Positions 1 through 23,294 of a DNA stretch of 31,354 nucleotides are shown here, piece by piece. A model generated the notes under the pieces. It was not told the origin of the DNA, made no database searches, and saw nothing but the letters and a program-made list of their open reading frames with translations. Made by a program: the position numbers and the translations under genes. Source of the DNA: Patescibacteria group bacterium UBA910 (GTDB lineage Bacteria > Patescibacteriota > Minisyncoccia > Phycocordibacterales > DATDWN01); assembly GCA_002294445.1 (NCBI GenBank), contig DBEI01000037.1:457-31810 (forward strand), given 5' to 3'. Position 1 is the stretch's first letter. Each line of letters begins with the position of its first letter.

Positions 1-33
1 AAGGCACCGAGAGTTCGAATCTCTCCGTCTCCG
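1..33 (+). tRNA. 3' part of a tRNA-Ser (anticodon lies outside the window)
   Basis: End of variable arm, T-arm GAGAG-TTCGAAT-CTCTC (9-25), acceptor 3' strand CGTCTCC (26-32) and discriminator G33, typical of Ser. CCA is not encoded. Confidence 0.8.
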
Positions 34-276
34 CAAATCAAGGACACCCTTTGGGGTGTTTTTGATTTGCGGAGCAAGAAAAATCAAAGATTTTTCGGGA
101 GAGATTCGAACGACGGAGCGGGCACCCATCGAGCACGATGGGTCGCGAGTCGGTGCCTAGCCTAAAATTTTTTGACGAAAAAATTTTAAGGCGAAGGAGA
201 AACTCTCTCCGTCTCCACGGATTTTGATTCAACGGAATTGAAATTATTCCTGACCAAATCTCTCCGTCTCCGCAAA
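34..276 (+). repeat. tRNA 3' trailer element, copy A
   Basis: Hairpin 29-74 that includes the tRNA 3' end; antisense T-arm copy at 98-111; core 101-202 matches 5197-5298 at 99/102; sense copies of the tRNA 3' end at 204-216 and 257-276 (20/20 identical to 18-37). Confidence 0.85.
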
Positions 277-360
277 GTCTGAGTAAAGTGAAAAATCTAT
301 ATTCCAATAAATTATGGATACTAGTTTAGTATATGCCCATGATATACTTATACCTATATT

Positions 361-1206
361 ATGAAACACATTTTTAAACACATTGGTCTTTTTTTATTTA
401 TCATAATAGTTACCCCACTGATTGCACACGCACATCAACCACGTATCACTGAAAGCCAGCAAACAATCGTTGTTGACCCTGAGATCTCTAAAGCATACTA
501 CGGCACACTCACCAATAAACCAGATGCTTACATAATCAACGCTTCAGAGCCGTTTGAATTGTATGTAAATCTTCTTGTGCCTGATACAAAAAATCAAAAA
601 AAGGATGTATCAGCTGTAATTATTAAAAATGGAAATGAAATTGCAGTACTTGAAGCAAGTAATGTGACCTGGGAAAAATTCTACGAACCATTTGGCGCAG
701 ATTGGTATTGGCGAGGACCTGAGTATACAGCCCAAGCTGATGCAGGTACATATGAGATTATTGTGTGGAGTAGTAACAATGACAGTAAATACTCTCTTGC
801 TATTGGCAAGAAAGAGGCTTTTGATTTCAAAGAAACAAAAAATGCATTACGTTTGATTCCACAACTCAAGAAAGATTTCTTTGAAACATCTCGACTTGGA
901 TTTATTAAATCACCTTTTGGATGGGGACTTGTACTTATACTCTATATCTTTGCGTTTATAACAGGTTTTCTATATCGCCTCATCCTCAAAAAAATTTTTC
1001 CAGGGACGTCACGAGGACTACATAAAAACATAGGCAAAAACGATCGAATTATGCGCCTGATTATCGCTGTTCTCTTGCTACTCTGGGCTATGAGCACATC
1101 GTGGAACCCAATTATCATTTTCTTTTCTGGGTTTACATTATTTGAAGCAATATTCAGTTGGTGTGGTTTTTATGCAGCAATAGGAAAAACAACCTGCCCG
1201 CTGTAA
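361..1206 (+). CDS. Membrane protein: exported N-terminal domain fused to a C-terminal DUF2892 (YgaP-like) domain
   Basis: Signal-peptide-like N-terminus; C-terminus KNIGKNDRIMRL...FEAIFSWCGFYAAIGKTTCP matches the DUF2892 pattern. Confidence 0.7.
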   Translation: MKHIFKHIGLFLFIIIVTPLIAHAHQPRITESQQTIVVDPEISKAYYGTLTNKPDAYIINASEPFELYVNLLVPDTKNQKKDVSAVIIKNGNEIAVLEASNVTWEKFYEPFGADWYWRGPEYTAQADAGTYEIIVWSSNNDSKYSLAIGKKEAFDFKETKNALRLIPQLKKDFFETSRLGFIKSPFGWGLVLILYIFAFITGFLYRLILKKIFPGTSRGLHKNIGKNDRIMRLIIAVLLLLWAMSTSWNPIIIFFSGFTLFEAIFSWCGFYAAIGKTTCPL

Positions 1207-1240
1207 TATATACATTATAATTCATATAACCCACATCGCC

Positions 1241-1768
1241 ATGAAAAAAATACTTTTTTTACTCGGTACTGCACGTGAAGGAAGAAAAAGTGAACAAGTT
1301 TCAAAATTTGTAATGTCTGTAGCACACACACGCACTGACATAGAACCTACATTTGTTGATGTTCGTGATTTCCCTCAATCAATCACATCACAATTATCCA
1401 AAGAACTAAATGACAAATGGAATACTCTCGTTAAAGAACATGATGGAATGGTGATTATCTCTCCTGAATACAACCACGGATATCCCGGCGAACTTAAACT
1501 CCTCCTTGATAACGCATACGATGTCTACGAAGGAAAACCTGTAGCAATCTGTGGGGTCTCAAATGGTCCGATAGGTGGCGCTCGAATGGCAGAACAACTC
1601 AAGCTAGTGCTTTCTGCATTCCAAATGATGATTATCAATGCTGCTGTATACTTTGCAAACGTCAACGAACTATTTGAAACATCTGGAGAAATAAAAAATA
1701 CTGAATATTGGGAAAAGCGTGTACATGGCATGATTGATCAAGTGATCAAGTACACACAAAATAACTAA
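1241..1768 (+). CDS. NAD(P)H-dependent FMN reductase (flavodoxin-like SsuE/ChrR family)
   Basis: Motifs LGTAREGRKS, SPEYNHGYPGELK and GGARMAEQL. Confidence 0.9.
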   Translation: MKKILFLLGTAREGRKSEQVSKFVMSVAHTRTDIEPTFVDVRDFPQSITSQLSKELNDKWNTLVKEHDGMVIISPEYNHGYPGELKLLLDNAYDVYEGKPVAICGVSNGPIGGARMAEQLKLVLSAFQMMIINAAVYFANVNELFETSGEIKNTEYWEKRVHGMIDQVIKYTQNN

Positions 1769-1858
1769 TACGTCACACTCCCCATCCACAACCTTTTTAC
1801 AGAACACATGATACAATATATGTGTAGTCGAAAAGTATACAATTAACATATAATACAC

Positions 1859-2002
1859 ATGAAAACATATATATTATTGGGTGCGGCTCTTTCTTTAGCT
1901 CTGGCAGTATACCTTTGGTCTGTAGGCCAAACAGATCAAGGTCTTTTTGTAGGTCTTTGGGTACCATCAATTCTCGCACTCGGTGCTTTCTTGAAAAAAT
2001 AA
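1859..2002 (+). CDS. 47-aa membrane micro-protein (below the ORF-track cutoff)
   Basis: Hand-translated: MKTYILLGAALSLALAVYLWSVGQTDQGLFVGLWVPSILALGAFLKK*; two hydrophobic segments. Confidence 0.75.
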   Translation: MKTYILLGAALSLALAVYLWSVGQTDQGLFVGLWVPSILALGAFLKK

Positions 2003-2003
2003 T

Positions 2004-2084
2004 ATGCTCTCTCACACAGCTATTTTTATTGCTGGTTTCATCATTACAACAATTGTGCTTTTAGGTGTGTTGAAGGATAGGTAA
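2004..2084 (+). CDS. 26-aa hydrophobic micro-protein
   Basis: Hand-translated: MLSHTAIFIAGFIITTIVLLGVLKDR*; ATG lies 1 nt after the preceding stop; single TM-like segment. Confidence 0.55.
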   Translation: MLSHTAIFIAGFIITTIVLLGVLKDR

Positions 2085-2168
2085 ACACCATATTCATCTG
2101 GTTACATCATTCCAAACTGTTTACAGAGTGGGAGAATTTCATCTATTCAGTCTATTTGATTTGAAACT

Positions 2169-3641
2169 ATGGCACCACAGAAACATATATACCACCTCGT
2201 CTACCCACACCAACTTTTTGAAGAACTTTTCTTATTTCCAAAAGAGACGGTCTTTGTACTCATCGAAGACCCTCTCTTTTTTGGTGATAAAAAATACCCA
2301 AGAAATTTTCATAAACAAAAAATTGTCTTGCATCGAGCTTCTATGCGGGCAATCATGGAAAAGCTTACACACAAAGGATTTAAGGTGCATTATTTTGAAT
2401 ATACAAACCACCCTGATCCAGAACATGTAGCCACTTTTTTTAACACAAAAAAAGATCAGGTATTTACTGTATACGATCCGGTAGATTATATACTCGAACG
2501 TAGGCTCAAAAAATCTTTCTCTTCCTTCCCTTCTTTTTCTATAAAAGAGACACCAAATTTCTTAACACCACTACCAACCATCAATTCTTTTTTTAAGGGA
2601 AAGAAAAAACTACTCATGAATAGTTTTTACATATACCAACGCAAAAGACTGGGTATATTGGTGGATAACGATAAACCGATAGGTGGTAAATGGAGTTTTG
2701 ATACAGAAAACAGGAAACGACTCCCAAAAGATATTTCTCTTCCATACGACATCAACCACACAAAAGATACACATGTTGCTGAAGCAATAGACTACACAAA
2801 CAAACACTTCAAACATAACCCGGGAAATGCGGAAGATTTCAATTATCCTATAGACCACGCAAGCGCCCAAAAACTTCTCACTCACTTTATAACCCACAAA
2901 CTGAGCTTGTTTGGTGCATATGAAGACGCGATCACAGAAAAAGACTCGACTCTTTTTCATAGTACACTCTCTGCACCTTTAAATATTGGGCTCTTGTCCC
3001 CTGCAACAATCACTGAAAAGGTATTATCGGTACAACATCACACACCGATTGCATCACTCGAAGGTTTCATTCGTCAAATCATTGGCTGGCGAGAATTTAT
3101 GCGTGCAGTGTATGTTCTCAAAGGTTCTGAGATGCGAAACAAAAATTTTTTAAAGCATACACGAAAGCTTCCCCAATCTTGGTATAATGCAACAACAGGC
3201 ATACACCCTATCGACCACACCATTCAGAAAGTACTTACACACGCATACTGTCATCACATTGAACGCCTGATGATCCTTGGAAACTTCATGCTTCTCCTGC
3301 AGATCAAACCGTCAGATATTTATGATTGGTTTATGGATCTATTTATCGATGCATACGACTGGGTCATGGTGCCAAACGTGTATGCTATGAGTCAATTTGC
3401 TGATGGAGGCACTGTCACCACTAAACCATATTTTAGCTCCTCACATTACGTCCTTAAAATGAGCGACTACAAAAAAGGTGAATGGTGTGAAATATGGGAC
3501 AGTCTGTTCTATGTATTTCTCGAAAACCACCGTGCAGTAATTGCTAAAAATCCACGACTTACTGTGCTTATAAAAAATCTTGAGAAATTATCTCCAGAAC
3601 GCAAAGCGAATATGAAAAAGATTATAAAAAAATACACATGA
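2169..3641 (+). CDS. Bacterial (6-4) photolyase / cryptochrome-photolyase family protein (PhrB/FeS-BCP-like clade, lacking Fe-S cysteines)
   Basis: Motifs FHKQK, GGKWSFDTENRK, EGFIRQIIGWREF, HAYCHHIERLMILGNF and DAYDWVMVPNV; only two Cys in 490 aa. Confidence 0.88.
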   Translation: MAPQKHIYHLVYPHQLFEELFLFPKETVFVLIEDPLFFGDKKYPRNFHKQKIVLHRASMRAIMEKLTHKGFKVHYFEYTNHPDPEHVATFFNTKKDQVFTVYDPVDYILERRLKKSFSSFPSFSIKETPNFLTPLPTINSFFKGKKKLLMNSFYIYQRKRLGILVDNDKPIGGKWSFDTENRKRLPKDISLPYDINHTKDTHVAEAIDYTNKHFKHNPGNAEDFNYPIDHASAQKLLTHFITHKLSLFGAYEDAITEKDSTLFHSTLSAPLNIGLLSPATITEKVLSVQHHTPIASLEGFIRQIIGWREFMRAVYVLKGSEMRNKNFLKHTRKLPQSWYNATTGIHPIDHTIQKVLTHAYCHHIERLMILGNFMLLLQIKPSDIYDWFMDLFIDAYDWVMVPNVYAMSQFADGGTVTTKPYFSSSHYVLKMSDYKKGEWCEIWDSLFYVFLENHRAVIAKNPRLTVLIKNLEKLSPERKANMKKIIKKYT

Positions 3642-4996
3642 AGCACATAATTGATCAAAGAAGAATACATCCACTCAATGACCACCCTATCGGAGACGGC
3701 CCGATACTATACTGGATGAGTCGAGACCAACGAGCACACGACAACTGGGCACTCCTTCACGCTCAAACACTTGCTTCAGAAAAGAACCAAGAACTCATAG
3801 TGGTATTTTGTTTGGTTCCTCATTTTCTCGAAGCTACCATCCGTCAGTATGGTTTTATGCTCAAGGGACTTGAAGAAGTGGAGCAAGAACTCGAAAAGCA
3901 CAATATTCGCTTTCATCTTCTTCAAGGAGACCCGAGCAAGGAAATTCTTGCATATGCTCACAAGATAAAGGCAGGGGCGATCGTGACAGACTTTGACCCA
4001 CTCCATATTAAAAAGAAATGGAGAGAGTCTGTAGCACACTCATGTGAATGCGCATTATACGAAGTTGACACCCACAATATCGTTCCATGCCGAATCGCTT
4101 CTCCAAAACAAGAATTTGGTGCATATACACTGAGACCAAAAATTCATAAGGTTCTCCACGAATACCTGACAGATATACCCTCTCTCAAAAAACAAACTCT
4201 CGAAGTATCTCACAAAAAAACTCATTGGAAAGATGTATATGATTCACTTCATGTAGATATGAGCGTACCTGAAGTACAATGGTGCATCAGCGGAGAAAAA
4301 GCTGCTCACCGTGTCCTCAAACAGTTTATACATGAACGATTGCATGCATACAACACTGACCGAAATGACCCCACAAAAGATGGCCAATCAGACCTGTCAC
4401 CATATCTCCATTTTGGACAAATATCAGCACAACGAGTCGCCCTTGAAATCAAAAAGCATGGACATGGACACATACACATGCAAGCTTTTCTCGAAGAATT
4501 GATTGTACGCAAAGAATTATCTGATAATTTTTGTCACTACAATCCACATTACGATTCTGTAGTTGGCTTCCCTGCATGGGCACAAAAGACCCTAAAAGAG
4601 CACGAAAAGGATGCGCGGGAGTACACATACACACGCACAGTCTTTGAACACGCACATACTCATGACCCACTCTGGAATGCTGCTCAACTCCAGATGGTAC
4701 ATACAGGAAAGATGCATGGATACATGCGCATGTATTGGGCAAAAAAGATACTTGAATGGACTAAAAATCCTGAGGAAGCACTACAGATTGCACTCTATTT
4801 AAATGATAAATATGAGCTTGATGGTCGTGACCCAAATGGATATGTGGGAGTGGCTTGGTCTATTGGCGGTGTACATGATCGGGCATGGTTTGACCGAGAT
4901 ATTTTCGGAAAAATACGCTACATGAGCTACAACGGATGTAAATCAAAGTTTGATGTTGCGGGGTATATAAAAAAATACAATCCAAAAGAAGAATAA
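3638..4996 (+). CDS. phr: Class II CPD (deoxyribodipyrimidine) photolyase
   Basis: Motifs YWMSRDQRAHDNWAL, SPYLHFGQIS, MHGYMRMYWAKK and DGRDPNGYVGVAWSIGGVHDRAW; ATGA overlap with the upstream gene. Confidence 0.93.
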   Translation: MKHIIDQRRIHPLNDHPIGDGPILYWMSRDQRAHDNWALLHAQTLASEKNQELIVVFCLVPHFLEATIRQYGFMLKGLEEVEQELEKHNIRFHLLQGDPSKEILAYAHKIKAGAIVTDFDPLHIKKKWRESVAHSCECALYEVDTHNIVPCRIASPKQEFGAYTLRPKIHKVLHEYLTDIPSLKKQTLEVSHKKTHWKDVYDSLHVDMSVPEVQWCISGEKAAHRVLKQFIHERLHAYNTDRNDPTKDGQSDLSPYLHFGQISAQRVALEIKKHGHGHIHMQAFLEELIVRKELSDNFCHYNPHYDSVVGFPAWAQKTLKEHEKDAREYTYTRTVFEHAHTHDPLWNAAQLQMVHTGKMHGYMRMYWAKKILEWTKNPEEALQIALYLNDKYELDGRDPNGYVGVAWSIGGVHDRAWFDRDIFGKIRYMSYNGCKSKFDVAGYIKKYNPKEE

Positions 4997-5041
4997 AAAC
5001 TTTTGCAAATAAGCCTCTAATCGAGTAATCTATACTATACT

Positions 5042-5128
5042 GGAGGATTGGATGAGTGGCTTAAATCAACGGTTTACTAAACCGTCGTTCGGGAAACCGA
5101 ACCGTGAGTTCGAATCTCACATCCTCCG
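5042..5128 (+). tRNA. tRNA-Ser with anticodon ACT
   Basis: Acceptor GGAGGAT/ATCCTCC, discriminator G; anticodon stem ACGGT/ACCGT with loop TT-ACT-AA (5074-5080); long variable arm GTTCGG-GAAA-CCGAAC; T-arm GTGAG-TTCGAAT-CTCAC. Confidence 0.9.
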
Positions 5129-5316
5129 CAAATGAAAGACACCCTCCGGGGTGTTTTTCATTTGCAGAGGAAAGCAAAACTGGAAGTTTTGAGGGTGAGA
5201 TTCGAACGACGGAGCGGGCACCCATCGAGCACGATGGGTCGCGAGTCGGTGCCCAGTCTAAAATTTTTTGACGAAAAAATTTTAAGGCGAGGGAGAAATT
5301 CTCACATCCTCCGCAA
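5129..5316 (+). repeat. tRNA 3' trailer element, copy B
   Basis: Hairpin 5124-5169; antisense T-arm copy at 5195-5207; shared core 5197-5298; 17-bp exact repeat of this tRNA's 3' end at 5300-5316 (equals 5115-5131). Confidence 0.85.
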
Positions 5317-5600
5317 CGAAAGTTCCTCATACCGATTTAGGTATGAGGAACTTTTTGTTTACAGGAGTGGAGGTGAGATTCGAAAGATGGAGGCGGCATA
5401 CAAGACGAACGAAGTGGGTGCTTATCGCCGAGTCGGGCTGAGCCATGAAGTGACAAGCGGAGGACCTTTTGAGATTTTTTATAAACTTGTGTAATAAAAA
5501 ATCCAAAAGAGATACCAACCCTGTAAAGGTCGAGAGTACTTGGTGCTCGCAGGATGTATTCACCTGAGAACACTTAGTAACTCGTGACCGAATCTCAAAT
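5317..5600 (+). repeat. Second, divergent trailer unit
   Basis: 15-bp stem at 5319-5354; another antisense T-arm GGTGAGATTCGAA at 5372-5384; core-like GA.GGAG..GGCA...CGAGTCGG; A/T-tract hairpin; ends with a degenerate TGACCGAATCTCA. Confidence 0.6.
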
Positions 5601-5654
5601 CTGTATTATCAGAACGCATTTGCTGTATAATAAAACAGTGAAATCATAAATTAA

Positions 5655-6437
5655 TTGAAAATGGAAAAAAAATTTCTATTACCAAGAGAAAAATATGCGG
5701 AAGCAAGAAAGCAATACGGTCACAGCCCATTTACTTTTGAAATTGAAAAAAATGGACAAGTCTTATTCTATTTTGGTGCAAATCACTCAACCGACCCTGA
5801 AAACAACCAGTTTCCAATTTTGAGAACATACTGGAAAAAATTTTTAGAAAAAACAAAGGGAAAAGATAAAATTGTATTAATTGAAGGAGGATTAAGACCT
5901 CTGGCTCAGACTGAAAAAGAGGCTATAGAAAAGAGTTCAGAAGGAGGTCTCGCTACTTACCTTGCCAACAAAGAGAATGTGCCTATTACCTCTCCTGATA
6001 TAGACTCTGATGATTTTGCAAAGTCTATACCTGACCTAGATCCACAACAATGGTTTTTAGCATCTTTTCTTCGTTGGTTTGAATTATTTCAAAAAAATAA
6101 AAAAGTAAAAGAGAATACCCTAGAAGAGATCTGTAAAATAATAAAAAGAAAAGACTACTGGAAAGACGTTGAGGTTACCCCTGAAAAGTTCAAGATCTTA
6201 TACAAGCAATATATCGGAAAAGATTTTCATGAATATGAGAGTCAAAATAATTTTATAAATCCGAACAGAGATGACGCTATTACAAATAAGCTGATAAGAA
6301 TGCATAGCGACGCAAGAGAAGTAAAAATCGTTGAGGATGCACATAAATACTGGCAAGAAGGCAAGAATATTTTTATCGTCTTTGGCAGTGGCCACCTTAT
6401 TATTCAAAGACCCGCTTTAGAGACACTTCTAAAGTGA
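5655..6437 (+). CDS. Hypothetical protein
   Basis: 260-aa ORF (TTG at 5655 or ATG at 5661) with upstream TG-TATAAT; C-terminal FIVFGSGH is weakly reminiscent of TraB/GumN folds but is not assigned. Confidence 0.75.
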   Translation: MKMEKKFLLPREKYAEARKQYGHSPFTFEIEKNGQVLFYFGANHSTDPENNQFPILRTYWKKFLEKTKGKDKIVLIEGGLRPLAQTEKEAIEKSSEGGLATYLANKENVPITSPDIDSDDFAKSIPDLDPQQWFLASFLRWFELFQKNKKVKENTLEEICKIIKRKDYWKDVEVTPEKFKILYKQYIGKDFHEYESQNNFINPNRDDAITNKLIRMHSDAREVKIVEDAHKYWQEGKNIFIVFGSGHLIIQRPALETLLK

Positions 6438-22442: not shown

Positions 22443-22851
22443 GGGGGTGTCAGGTTTTGACATAGTCTGCATCCGTTCGCGCACTACAGAGTTCTAGTCA
22501 CTCTCAAAACAACTAGAAACCATACGTGTAAACAATACTGTTGCACGAGCAAAAGCTTCTGTTTCTCCATACTTTGGAGTAAACGACTTTGCTTTCTCTT
22601 ACGCACGAGCTTAATTTTAAGACTCGTCCCTAGGAGGGGGTGATACATCTGATATCTCATACGATGCCTCATTCATATAACCTTGAGATCCGGTCACTTC
22701 CCTGTTTCAGGATTTGACTCAAAAAATGAAACTCGCCTTTTTCTTGTTTTGTGTATTTTATAGAGAAAAAGTCTAAACGTTAAAATATTCTATGTAGTGT
22801 AGACCCGTTCGTATTCTCTCTATGCACGTGGTTTCGATACCACCATCTCCA
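22443..22851 (+). ncRNA. ssrA: tmRNA
   Basis: 5' GGGGGTG pairs with 3' CATCTCC (including G3-U70), discriminator A; T-arm GTGGT-TTCGAT-ACCAC; internal tag frame 22528-22614; adjacent to smpB. Confidence 0.9.
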
Positions 22852-22970
22852 CTGCTTCGCTAAAGCTACGCAGTGCAAGCACTAAATACCTTTAGCACAT
22901 CAAACTTCACTCAACACGTGAGGTTTTTTGTTAGCGAAGAAGTGGATCCTGTGTAGCCTTGGCGAAGCAG
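22852..22970. repeat. Inverted-repeat element preceding the GIY-YIG gene
   Basis: CTGCTTCGCTAAAGCTACGCAG (22852-22873) vs reverse complement of 22949-22970 (CTGCTTCGCCAAGGCTACACAG), 19/22; a partial third copy TTAGCGAAG at 22931-22939. Confidence 0.75.
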
Positions 22971-22988
22971 GATATATATAATAAATAT

Positions 22989-23228
22989 ATGCACTATGTC
23001 TATATTTTAAAGAGTCAAAAAGACAACAGCCTCTATATTGGCAGTACAGAAAATGTAAAAAATAGACTAAAGGAACATAACCGAGGCGAATCGACATATT
23101 CAAAAACTAAAAAACCATTTTCTTTAGTTTGGTTTTGTATATTTCCTAACAAACAAAAAGCTTTAGCTTTTGAAAAATATCTCAAACATGGTTCAGGACA
23201 CGCTTTTACAAAAAAGCATTTAATTTAA
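22989..23228 (+). CDS. Small stand-alone GIY-YIG nuclease
   Basis: MHYVYILKS...LYIGSTENVKNRLKEHN...ALAFEKYLK, 79 aa from the ATG at 22989. Confidence 0.9.
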   Translation: MHYVYILKSQKDNSLYIGSTENVKNRLKEHNRGESTYSKTKKPFSLVWFCIFPNKQKALAFEKYLKHGSGHAFTKKHLI

Positions 23229-23237
23229 GTCAAAGGG

Positions 23238-23250
23238 TCGATACCACCAT
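23238..23250 (+). repeat. Duplication of the tmRNA 3' end (att/TSD-like)
   Basis: TCGATACCACCAT is identical to 22834-22846 and continues into hairpin GATACCAC/GTGGTATC. Confidence 0.7.
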
Positions 23251-23294
23251 TTTTGAAAGTGGTATCAAAACAACGGAAGGTATAAAATATACAC

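Follow-up and report, generated by a model that had tools for sequence, protein, structure and literature searches.

Trailer modules matched to neighbouring tRNA genes form a structured, protein-less family in Patescibacteria

The stretch of DNA analysed here, referred to as the window, comprises 31,354 nucleotides (nt) from Patescibacteria group bacterium UBA910 (assembly GCA_002294445.1, contig DBEI01000037.1, positions 457 to 31,810 of the forward strand) and carries two genes for serine transfer RNA (tRNA-Ser), each followed by a folded, repeated trailer. These trailers, copy A at 29-277 and copy B1 at 5122-5317, are members of a large, uncatalogued family of protein-less structured modules of 120-190 nt in Patescibacteria. 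The linkage of the family to tRNAs and the match of its flanks to each individual tRNA are confirmed. On balance, and with moderate confidence, the module is read here as a trailer RNA resembling the RtT repeats of Escherichia coli, which is co-transcribed with the tRNA, is closed by a helix matched to the neighbouring gene, has undergone gene conversion in the window and turns over slowly.

Copies A and B1 share the same order of parts, namely a hairpin, a spacer, an arm antisense to the T-arm of the tRNA, a core and a sense copy of the tRNA 3' end, all lying on the forward (+) strand. The host of copy A is tRNA-Ser(GCU), the 3' part of which occupies positions 1-34, the gene being already under way at the window start. 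The terminator-like hairpin behind it, T1 (29-74), is recognised by its inverted repeat and fold; its arms at 29-49 and 54-74 are 90% complementary, and the last bases of the tRNA, CTCCGCA, pair with 68-74. A spacer hairpin (78-96; sequence and fold), of a type also found in the tRNA-Ser(UGA) trailer, leads to the arm (97-111), which complements the T-loop and the 3' strand of the T-stem of tRNA-Ser(GCU) with a match of 13/13. The core then comprises the bulged hairpin P2/P3 (112-151), identified by covariation, with P2 as GAC-GGA-GCG / CGC-GA-GTC and an 8-bp P3 under an AGCA loop; the linker GGTGCC(T/C)AG (152-162); and P4 (163-188), an A/T-rich hairpin with the GACG tetraloop that is common in the family. 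The tail (GGAGAAAC) and the first sense copy of the tRNA 3' end (204-219), the latter evident as a direct repeat, occupy 189-219. They are followed at 219-274 by a second P4-like hairpin, a TGACC tail of the type seen in Gly-tRNA copies and a second sense copy (255-274) that starts within the T-loop, a segment which is probably the 3' remnant of an older stacked unit. The linker was at one point considered as a further instance of tailoring, antisense to the variable arm of tRNA-Ser(GCU), but it is a family-level motif that recurs at Ala, Leu, Arg, Ser and Tyr tRNA copies, and its presence at the four non-serine types ruled this out.

The host of copies B1 and B2 is tRNA-Ser(ACU) at 5042-5129 (ARAGORN; Rfam tRNA model, 54 bits). 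Its T1 hairpin (5122-5171) likewise includes the tRNA 3' end and is formed by an inverted repeat (5122-5144/5149-5171) that is 91% complementary. The spacer hairpin (5175-5191; sequence and fold) and the arm (5193-5207), again a 13/13 complement of the T-loop and T-stem 3' strand of the local tRNA, precede the core with P2/P3, linker and P4 (5208-5284), which is near-identical to that of A and matches the family covariance model at 73 bits. The tail and sense copy extend over 5285-5316, the copy being an exact 17-mer of the tRNA-Ser(ACU) 3' end at 5300-5316. Behind B1 lie a second terminator-like hairpin with a T-run, T2 (5319-5359; sequence and fold), and a diverged family member, B2 (5370-5473), recognised by a direct repeat, an inverted repeat of 94% and a weak model match. 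The arm of B2 also matches tRNA-Ser(ACU), and B2 is about 90% like a copy elsewhere in the studied genome (G000:C57:11388).

A recount of the cores at 101-202 (A) and 5197-5298 (B1) gives 99/102 identical positions, the differences lying at 158, 161 and 195, and the CTCTC (A) / CTCAC (B) difference can be tracked through tRNA, arm and sense copy. The preliminary description of this DNA had reported the shared architecture, the hairpins that absorb the tRNA 3' ends, the antisense arms, the near-invariant 102-bp core and the locally matched flanks, and every one of these features was recovered at the same place or within a few bases. Its layout thus stands; its extent does not, since copy A reaches about 277 with a second tail and B2 forms a diverged third copy. 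The T1 3' arm and the antisense arm add up to a complement (S') of almost the whole tRNA segment from T-loop to 3' end (S), broken by the spacer hairpin, and the unit order can be written S - T1 - S' - core - S*, where S* is the second copy of S, starting in the T-loop. Sense copies start at T-loop positions 56-58. The units have no credible coding frame, and the short frames that cross the A and B units are mechanical.

The presence of both loci in the genome is well established. An intact 88-nt tRNA-Ser(GCU) gene, with the T-arm GAGAG/TTCGAAT/CTCTC, stands at L134:2586-2673 in another assembly of the same organism. The N-runs of the genome had suggested withheld sequence or a 300-nt intron in this gene, candidates ruled out by the ordinary 88-nt gene, and the N-run upstream of the window is therefore a scaffold gap, with no intron or masked feature. 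Loci A and B were found again in independent assemblies (NCBI, JGI) at 99.97-99.98% identity, and locus B in a Logan assembly too; the A/B duplication is thus not the assembly artefact that the preliminary description had allowed for. As regards the tRNAs themselves, the GCU anticodon at the window start is normal and the ACU anticodon (A34) at 5042-5129 is unusual.

The fit between arm and tRNA extends far beyond these two loci, as the preliminary description had anticipated for a tailored element. At 35/35 loci with a readable T-arm, the seven loop positions of the arm are the exact complement of the local T-loop, over six T-loop variants (TTCGATT, TTCGAAT, TTCGAGT, TTCGACT, TTCAATT, of the transfer-messenger RNA (tmRNA) type, and TTCAAAT). 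The adjoining stem positions of the arm follow the tRNA too, save the outermost, which is usually a conserved T. Where the T-stem contains G-U pairs, the arm complements the 3' strand and is not a copy of the 5' strand (Trp copies L021 and L026; L022, L032, L025 and the first unit of L020), which identifies it as a true antisense segment. Deviation from the tRNA amounts to 0.89 per 10 nt in arms versus 1.86 in sense copies (Wilcoxon p = 0.006), a comparison that leans in favour of the sense copies but in which one tail type, starting later in the T-loop, is a confounder.

The family was delimited with a covariance model built on the arm and P2/P3 of ten copies. In the studied genome, which comprises 585 kb (0.59 Mb), is 82% complete and has 33 tRNA genes, the model gives 15 matches at E <= 1, ten of them at E <= 1e-7, and across a panel of 41 genomes it finds several hundred in total, with 1-19 in each of 33 genomes; within the same taxonomic family, 23 of the 24 other genomes carry matches. 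On these numbers, the arm-plus-core pattern is not due to chance, and the core is by no means confined to the two loci first noticed: many copies exist, nearly all at tRNAs, and most loci adjoin the 3' end of a tRNA or tmRNA gene and share its strand. At least 13 copies are present in this genome. Motif scans and the 33 tRNA trailers place them at the Tyr, Ala, Glu, Asp, Gly(UCC), Gly(GCC), Ser(UGA), Ser(GCU) and Ser(ACU) tRNAs, with two further copies at contig starts and one after a protein-coding gene. The module occurs on only about one third of tRNAs, and some related genomes carry none.

A genome scan with a 17-mer, which yields mostly chance matches in large GC-rich genomes, was re-scored with the model at 38 loci; only records labelled as candidate phyla radiation, or ones with uninformative titles, were confirmed. 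The confirmed lineages are Saccharibacteria, Paceibacterota, Parcubacteria, Minisyncoccia, Taylorbacteria, Lloydbacteria and 'Patescibacteria group'. None of the six matches from the same scan of viral contigs was confirmed by the model, nor was any of the non-Patescibacteria controls. Rfam searches, permissive for 1-6000 and at the gathering threshold for the whole window, returned tRNA and tmRNA matches only, and no description of the trailer family was found in literature searches.

The core has evolved as a folded structure. Over 44 distinct copies, 95% of the cells of the 14 modelled core pairs hold standard pairs and compensatory changes are present in 14/14. None of 500 shuffles reached the observed pairing values, and when the partner columns are slid by 1-3 positions pairing falls to 24-39%. 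P2 is either a continuous helix of 9 bp or contains a conserved GGA/GA internal loop, and P3, of 8 bp, follows a 3-5-nt bulge and is capped by AGYA, AACA or ACCA. P4 is A/T-rich, with 9-19 bp of widely different stem sequence, and its loop is GACG in 27/44 copies and G-N-C-G in 6 more. Two types of tail follow, TGACC or GGGAGAAAY. Within the inner helices, G-U pairs outnumber A-C pairs by 16 to 1 on the tRNA-sense strand, which is therefore taken as the folding strand. Hammerhead-like and box C/D-like readings of the CUGA/GAAA/UGACGA motifs were rejected, as the motif order is unfit and no Rfam ribozyme match was obtained. L7Ae, a candidate binder of the tandem G-A motifs, was not found in the 41 genomes.

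The preliminary description had argued that a simple duplication cannot give locus-matched flanks, and hence, as one possibility, that the ends of the element are templated from the target. The argument is not supported in this form, since A and B1 are homologous along the whole trailer, at very unequal identity: 50-65% in the tRNA body, about 85% in the T-arm and T1 (where the stem changes are compensatory), about 50% in the spacer hairpin and 97-100% in the arm and core, with a collapse past the tail. On another contig, the tRNA-Ser(UGA) trailer combines a spacer identical to that of A with the other core type; in a different genus, the tRNA-Ser(UGA) trailer has a spacer and a T1 that resemble their counterparts at locus B. 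The P3 hairpin of the A/B1 type recurs at Gly, Glu and Tyr tRNAs of other genomes, and one and the same tRNA can bear different P3 hairpins in different genomes. By these comparisons the trailers appear as mosaics, in which hairpin, spacer and core types are reassorted among tRNA-Ser genes. Because segment types reassort and the identity between A and B1 is uneven, patchy gene conversion between paralogous trailers would suffice, and the simplest account is that the arm-plus-core of A and B1 was recently homogenised by gene conversion, the two trailers being paralogous and 5 kb apart. For this pair there is no need to invoke ends templated from the target, a process that may still have played a part in the history of the family.

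None of the RNA runs searched contained sequence of the studied organism. When contigs of two wastewater metatranscriptomes were mapped to 5000-5520 at 85% likeness, relatives covered the tRNA, with a word depth of up to about 8900. In one run, the region from T1 through S* is covered by relatives' sequences at a depth of 25-280; in the other, a B2-type core is covered up to 915, and one 73-nt contig there has a depth of 439. Taking both runs together, relatives' cores are covered at a word depth of 80-900. Such coverage suggests abundant RNA from these cores in relatives. For the element alone, the predicted fold is a three-way junction closed by P1, a helix of the arm with the sense copy, and inclusion of the T1 3' arm adds an acceptor-like helix. 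In the predicted fold of the whole read-through transcript, S of the tRNA pairs with S', and the 5' acceptor strand of the tRNA pairs with S*. Three mutually exclusive pairings are thus predicted to be available.

The favoured account combines these observations. Read-through of T1 would transcribe the unit together with its tRNA, and the unit would fold as RNA, with S' and S* closing the three-way junction of P1, P2/P3 and P4 and leaving a 3' tail that would resemble a tRNA acceptor strand; alternatively, S' could pair with the tRNA's own S, extending T1. The flanks would then be pairing partners, kept in step with the adjacent tRNA by a local pairing constraint, possibly helped by template-switch correction of the S/S' palindrome. 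Recent gene conversion between trailers 5 kb apart would account for the near-identical cores of A and B1, and in the long term copies would be gained, stacked and decayed and their modules swapped, giving a slowly mobile repeat that persists at tRNA ends.

Several points weigh against this account. The metatranscriptome signal comes from relatives, is directionless and was not controlled for DNA carry-over. There is no promoter-like site between T1 and the arm, and expression would therefore depend on read-through of a terminator-like hairpin. Folded single-stranded DNA tolerates G-T pairs as well, so that the strand bias is no strict proof of RNA. Not every copy is under selection, as seen from the reduced or degenerate forms that this genome has at its Trp, Gln, Leu, Lys, Arg and Met tRNAs and from the existence of orphan copies. 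The gene conversion is deduced from identity profiles and was not directly observed, and the model leaves unexplained how some 20 tRNA types were first colonised by copies with matched arms.

Copies are gained, replaced and lost on the time scale of genera. Eight of the 41 panel genomes have no model match; in the five of them that were read, tRNA-Gly and neighbouring tRNAs have plain trailers with neither S' nor S*, and one match-free genome has a core-less version (T1, spacer, arm, tail and S*) at tRNA-Pro. At tRNA-Trp in the same genus, G001 has one core type and an S* that fits the present acceptor, G005 has the other core type and an S* that retains the acceptor sequence still present in tRNA-Trp of the studied genome, and the studied genome has a degenerate copy only. 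At one tRNA-Ala of a relative, three stacked units carry different cores and progressively decayed S* copies.

Some copies are arranged in unusual ways. Upstream of the window, L134:2413-2560 (the 3' part of which equals G000:C13:1-75) contains a 17-nt copy of the tRNA-Ser(GCU) 5' end, followed in turn by a hairpin, by a reduced core (a P2 containing the GGA/GA loop, a short P4 and a TGACC tail) and by decayed tRNA positions 20-47; the whole, 60 nt ahead of the intact gene, looks like a partial tRNA copy with a unit in its D-loop. At G000:C57:9694-11600, a SET-domain-like gene lies between the tRNA-Ser(UGA) trailer and a tRNA-less unit with a B2-type core, the latter preceded by a possible decayed tRNA end, an arrangement that recurs in a relative from a different genus (L028). 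A variant without the T-arm complement is found behind tRNA-Arg(UCU) (G000:C57:6100-6281) and tRNA-Lys (C61:7913-8080), where a complement of the last six bases of the tRNA (GTGCTC for Arg, GTGCAC for Lys) is fused to a GACGGAG core, with P4 and a brief repeat of the tRNA end and trailer behind it. At G000:C67:8400-8657, a direct duplication of the last 30 nt of tRNA-Pro and 12 nt of trailer lies about 75 nt downstream, with no more than a small hairpin in between; it is att-like and has no core of the trailer family.

A different explanation, possible though distinctly weaker, is that the units are mobile DNA addressed by a guide or a folded hairpin. The segment S-T1-S'-core would excise as a small circle or single strand, S' paired with S would mimic the duplex T-arm, and a host recombinase would exchange strands in the T-loop; the element's S would then restore the tRNA, and the host's original 3' end would be displaced downstream as S*. 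Such integration would leave exactly the order tRNA - T1 - S' - core - S*, with an S* that starts in the T-loop, the known site at which tRNA-integrating elements reportedly cross over, and it agrees with an S* that can be the fossil of an older acceptor (tRNA-Trp of G005), with the stacking of different-core units at one tRNA, with a copy number of 0-19 across relatives, with the plain trailers of element-free genomes and with the reduced copy found, immediately before the window, within the D-loop of a partial tRNA-Ser copy. The corresponding proposal of the preliminary description, a tRNA-targeting element, is borne out as far as a multi-copy, tRNA-linked family with co-varying flanks is concerned, but no transposase, integrase or reverse transcriptase among those tested tracks the element. 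Reverse transcriptase (RVT_1), present in 19/41 genomes, bears no relation to the element: none was found in G002, with 14 copies, or in G012, G014 and G021, and the element-free G016 and G031 have it; the only such gene of the studied genome is a 338-aa frame at G000:C45:3334-3942, adjoining a scaffold gap. The Y1/IS200 transposase (PF01797) was not found in the element-rich G007, G008, G017, G020 and G021 and is present in the element-free G026, G031 and G034, and the IS110 transposase (PF01548) was not found in the studied genome, 82% complete and the only one searched for it. A Xer-like tyrosine recombinase is encoded in 38/41 genomes regardless of the element, most having a single one; no integrase lies near the units, the one Phage_integrase-family gene of the studied genome being on another contig; and RtcB, tested for RNA circle formation, is found in 1/41 genomes. 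Units moving as DNA would therefore use housekeeping functions or some other enzyme. The comparison of empty and filled loci suggested in the preliminary description yielded no such allele pair among near-identical assemblies: at 80 metagenome photolyase loci, protein identity was at most 64% and tRNA synteny was lost, the G005 photolyase orthologue has no tRNA after it, and identical-protein look-ups returned the same strain only. Moreover, compensatory evolution of P2, P3 and P4 at one tRNA across genera is unexpected for inert insertions, and retargeting would make a chimeric, probably non-functional tRNA. A more elaborate conjecture, to be held about as tentatively, is a protein-less insertion element addressed by base pairing, in which a folded hairpin copying the T-arm and acceptor duplex would serve as the attachment site, a housekeeping enzyme would recombine it into the T-loop and occasionally the D-loop, the tRNA would be rebuilt from the element's copy, and the arms could be rewritten to new tRNAs.

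The trailers could also act as a cis RNA switch on the pre-tRNA, S' zipping either onto the T-arm and acceptor 3' strand or onto the decoy S* and so controlling folding, 3' processing or termination at T2; this we regard as improbable. The switch put forward in the preliminary description is compatible with the three mutually exclusive pairings, the minimum-energy read-through fold pairs S with S' and the 5' acceptor strand with S*, and the fit of the arms, as complements, to the functional tRNA is closer than that of the sense copies, as likenesses. Against a switch, there is no ligand or sensor and no consistent regulated output, T2 involving S* at Gly-UCC but not at B1; the cloverleaf would form first during transcription, a simple antisense or decoy needs no conserved P2/P3/P4 core, and the restriction to a third of the tRNAs, with some related genomes devoid of the module, fits a switch poorly. 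It is very improbable that the units are attL/attR scars of integrase-borne islands or prophages, the remainder being decayed island DNA. Direct repeats of tRNA 3' ends are a hallmark of these integrations and a SET-domain gene does stand between two units at G000:C57, yet the 100-nt interior is conserved, covarying and common to hundreds of loci, and the units measure 170-190 nt, have no open reading frame (ORF) and no integrase nearby, and contain an antisense arm foreign to an att scar. Hardly credible at all is a reading from the other strand, on which an antisense RNA or a tRNA-like gene would run in the direction of the tRNA, even though T1 scores as a terminator on the minus strand too and that strand starts with acceptor-like and T-stem-like sequence: the 16 G-U against 1 A-C pairs belong to the plus strand and the helices would be disrupted on the minus strand, where ARAGORN and Rfam find nothing save a spurious below-threshold plastid match to the tRNA complement.

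The repeats also leave their mark on annotation and assembly, since they break or mis-join contigs and can pass for the att sites of islands. The genome has 24 N-runs of 96-408 nt, several of them directly behind tRNA genes (such as tRNA-Val and tRNA-Leu on C57); these gaps are consistent with a breaking of the assembly by the trailer repeats, and the copy number given for this genome is therefore probably an underestimate. The contigs L128:2105-2566, L130 and L136 fuse window 4996-5303 to 158-360, that is, the B1 core to the A tail, and put the photolyase gene directly before the gene at window 361. L129 and L131 diverge from the window within the B2 core, at 5437. The B1-to-A junction could be a mis-join induced by the repeats or a genuine 5.1-kb circle or tandem produced by core recombination; the simplest reading of the contigs with this junction, and of those that depart inside the B2 core, is joining induced by the repeats. 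Elsewhere in the window, at 22443-23270, a tmRNA gene (62 bits with Rfam) precedes a short ORF of GIY-YIG-like type and a stretch that partially repeats the tmRNA T-arm (GGTCGATACCACCA); this region has no core of the trailer family.

Several known systems resemble the trailer units in part. Islands and prophages that integrate into tRNA genes by a tyrosine integrase share the direct repeat from T-loop to 3' end, the intact tRNA and a downstream copy that can decay or fossilise; the trailer units differ in having no integrase or ORF and in their covarying fold and antisense arm, and most genomes have no extra integrase. The attP(+) hairpin of CTX phage and the attC sites of integrons imitate the duplex target by folding a pair of inverted, target-like arms; they are strand-specific in their pairing and tolerant of G-T, and the predicted integrated order matches tRNA-T1-S'-core-S*; the predicted P1 and the strand bias fit this type of folding and an RNA equally. 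However, those sites mimic dif or attI, whereas the trailer units would mimic a tRNA arm; those sites depend on XerCD or IntI, and the Xer-like gene is uncorrelated with the trailer element; and, unlike the trailer units, they have no conserved structured core with invariant loops. The IS200/IS605 elements, with their guide tetranucleotides, and IS110/IS1111, with their bridge or seek RNAs, are alike in that the element carries the complement of its own target and flank, but the cognate transposases were not found (IS110, in the studied genome) or do not track the family, and the guide of the trailers is 11-20 nt and pairs in cis with the duplicated target. As explanations, classical integrase scars, IS200/IS110-type elements and retroelements each fail on a defining feature that was tested.

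The closest likeness is to RtT, compared here at the E. coli tRNA-Tyr only (tyrV-rttR region; RF00391, the 178-bp repeats of the tyrT/tyrV locus). RtT is reportedly a processed RNA, as established experimentally; for the trailer family, a processed RNA is what we infer. The RtT repeats behind the E. coli tRNA-Tyr genes have been known for decades and are still unexplained, their mode of action being described as still unknown (bioRxiv 10.1101/2024.07.17.603846). Both elements lie directly 3' of a tRNA on the same strand and are tandemly stacked, here as B1 and B2 and as the three units at a relative's tRNA-Ala. Each 178-bp RtT unit ends in a 19-nt copy of the tRNA-Tyr 3' end that starts in the T-loop, as do the copies of 17-19 nt here, and contains GGGGAAGGAT, a complement of the 3' strand of the T-stem and of the first bases of the acceptor, which resembles the antisense arm. 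In the outer helix of the RF00391 consensus, the arm GGGGAAGGAU pairs with the tRNA-end copy and leaves the acceptor strand and CCA as a 3' tail; the counterpart in the present family would be the predicted P1, of 97-111 with 204-219 or 255-274 and of 5193-5207 with 5300-5316. The interior of RtT is nonetheless without P2/P3/P4, T1 hairpin and spacer, all of which are present in the trailer family; the two are not alike in sequence, and RF00391 has no match in 1-6000 at E <= 1 nor in the whole window at the gathering threshold (45 bits), while the E. coli tyrV region gave four matches of 133-137 bits as a positive control. The trailer family is, in addition, fitted to at least 10 tRNA types and tmRNA. 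It shares the RtT layout but reaches up to 19 copies per genome sampled, in genomes of 0.5-0.9 Mb with little idle DNA, and this multitude allows the constant parts (the P2 internal loop, the P3 and P4 loops and the TGACC tail) to be told from those complementary to the tRNA, so that the purpose and spread of trailer RNAs matched to tRNA ends become directly testable. The element is accordingly filed as one that works like RtT and not as a member of RF00391, because the two have the same layout around different interiors, without an RF00391 match.

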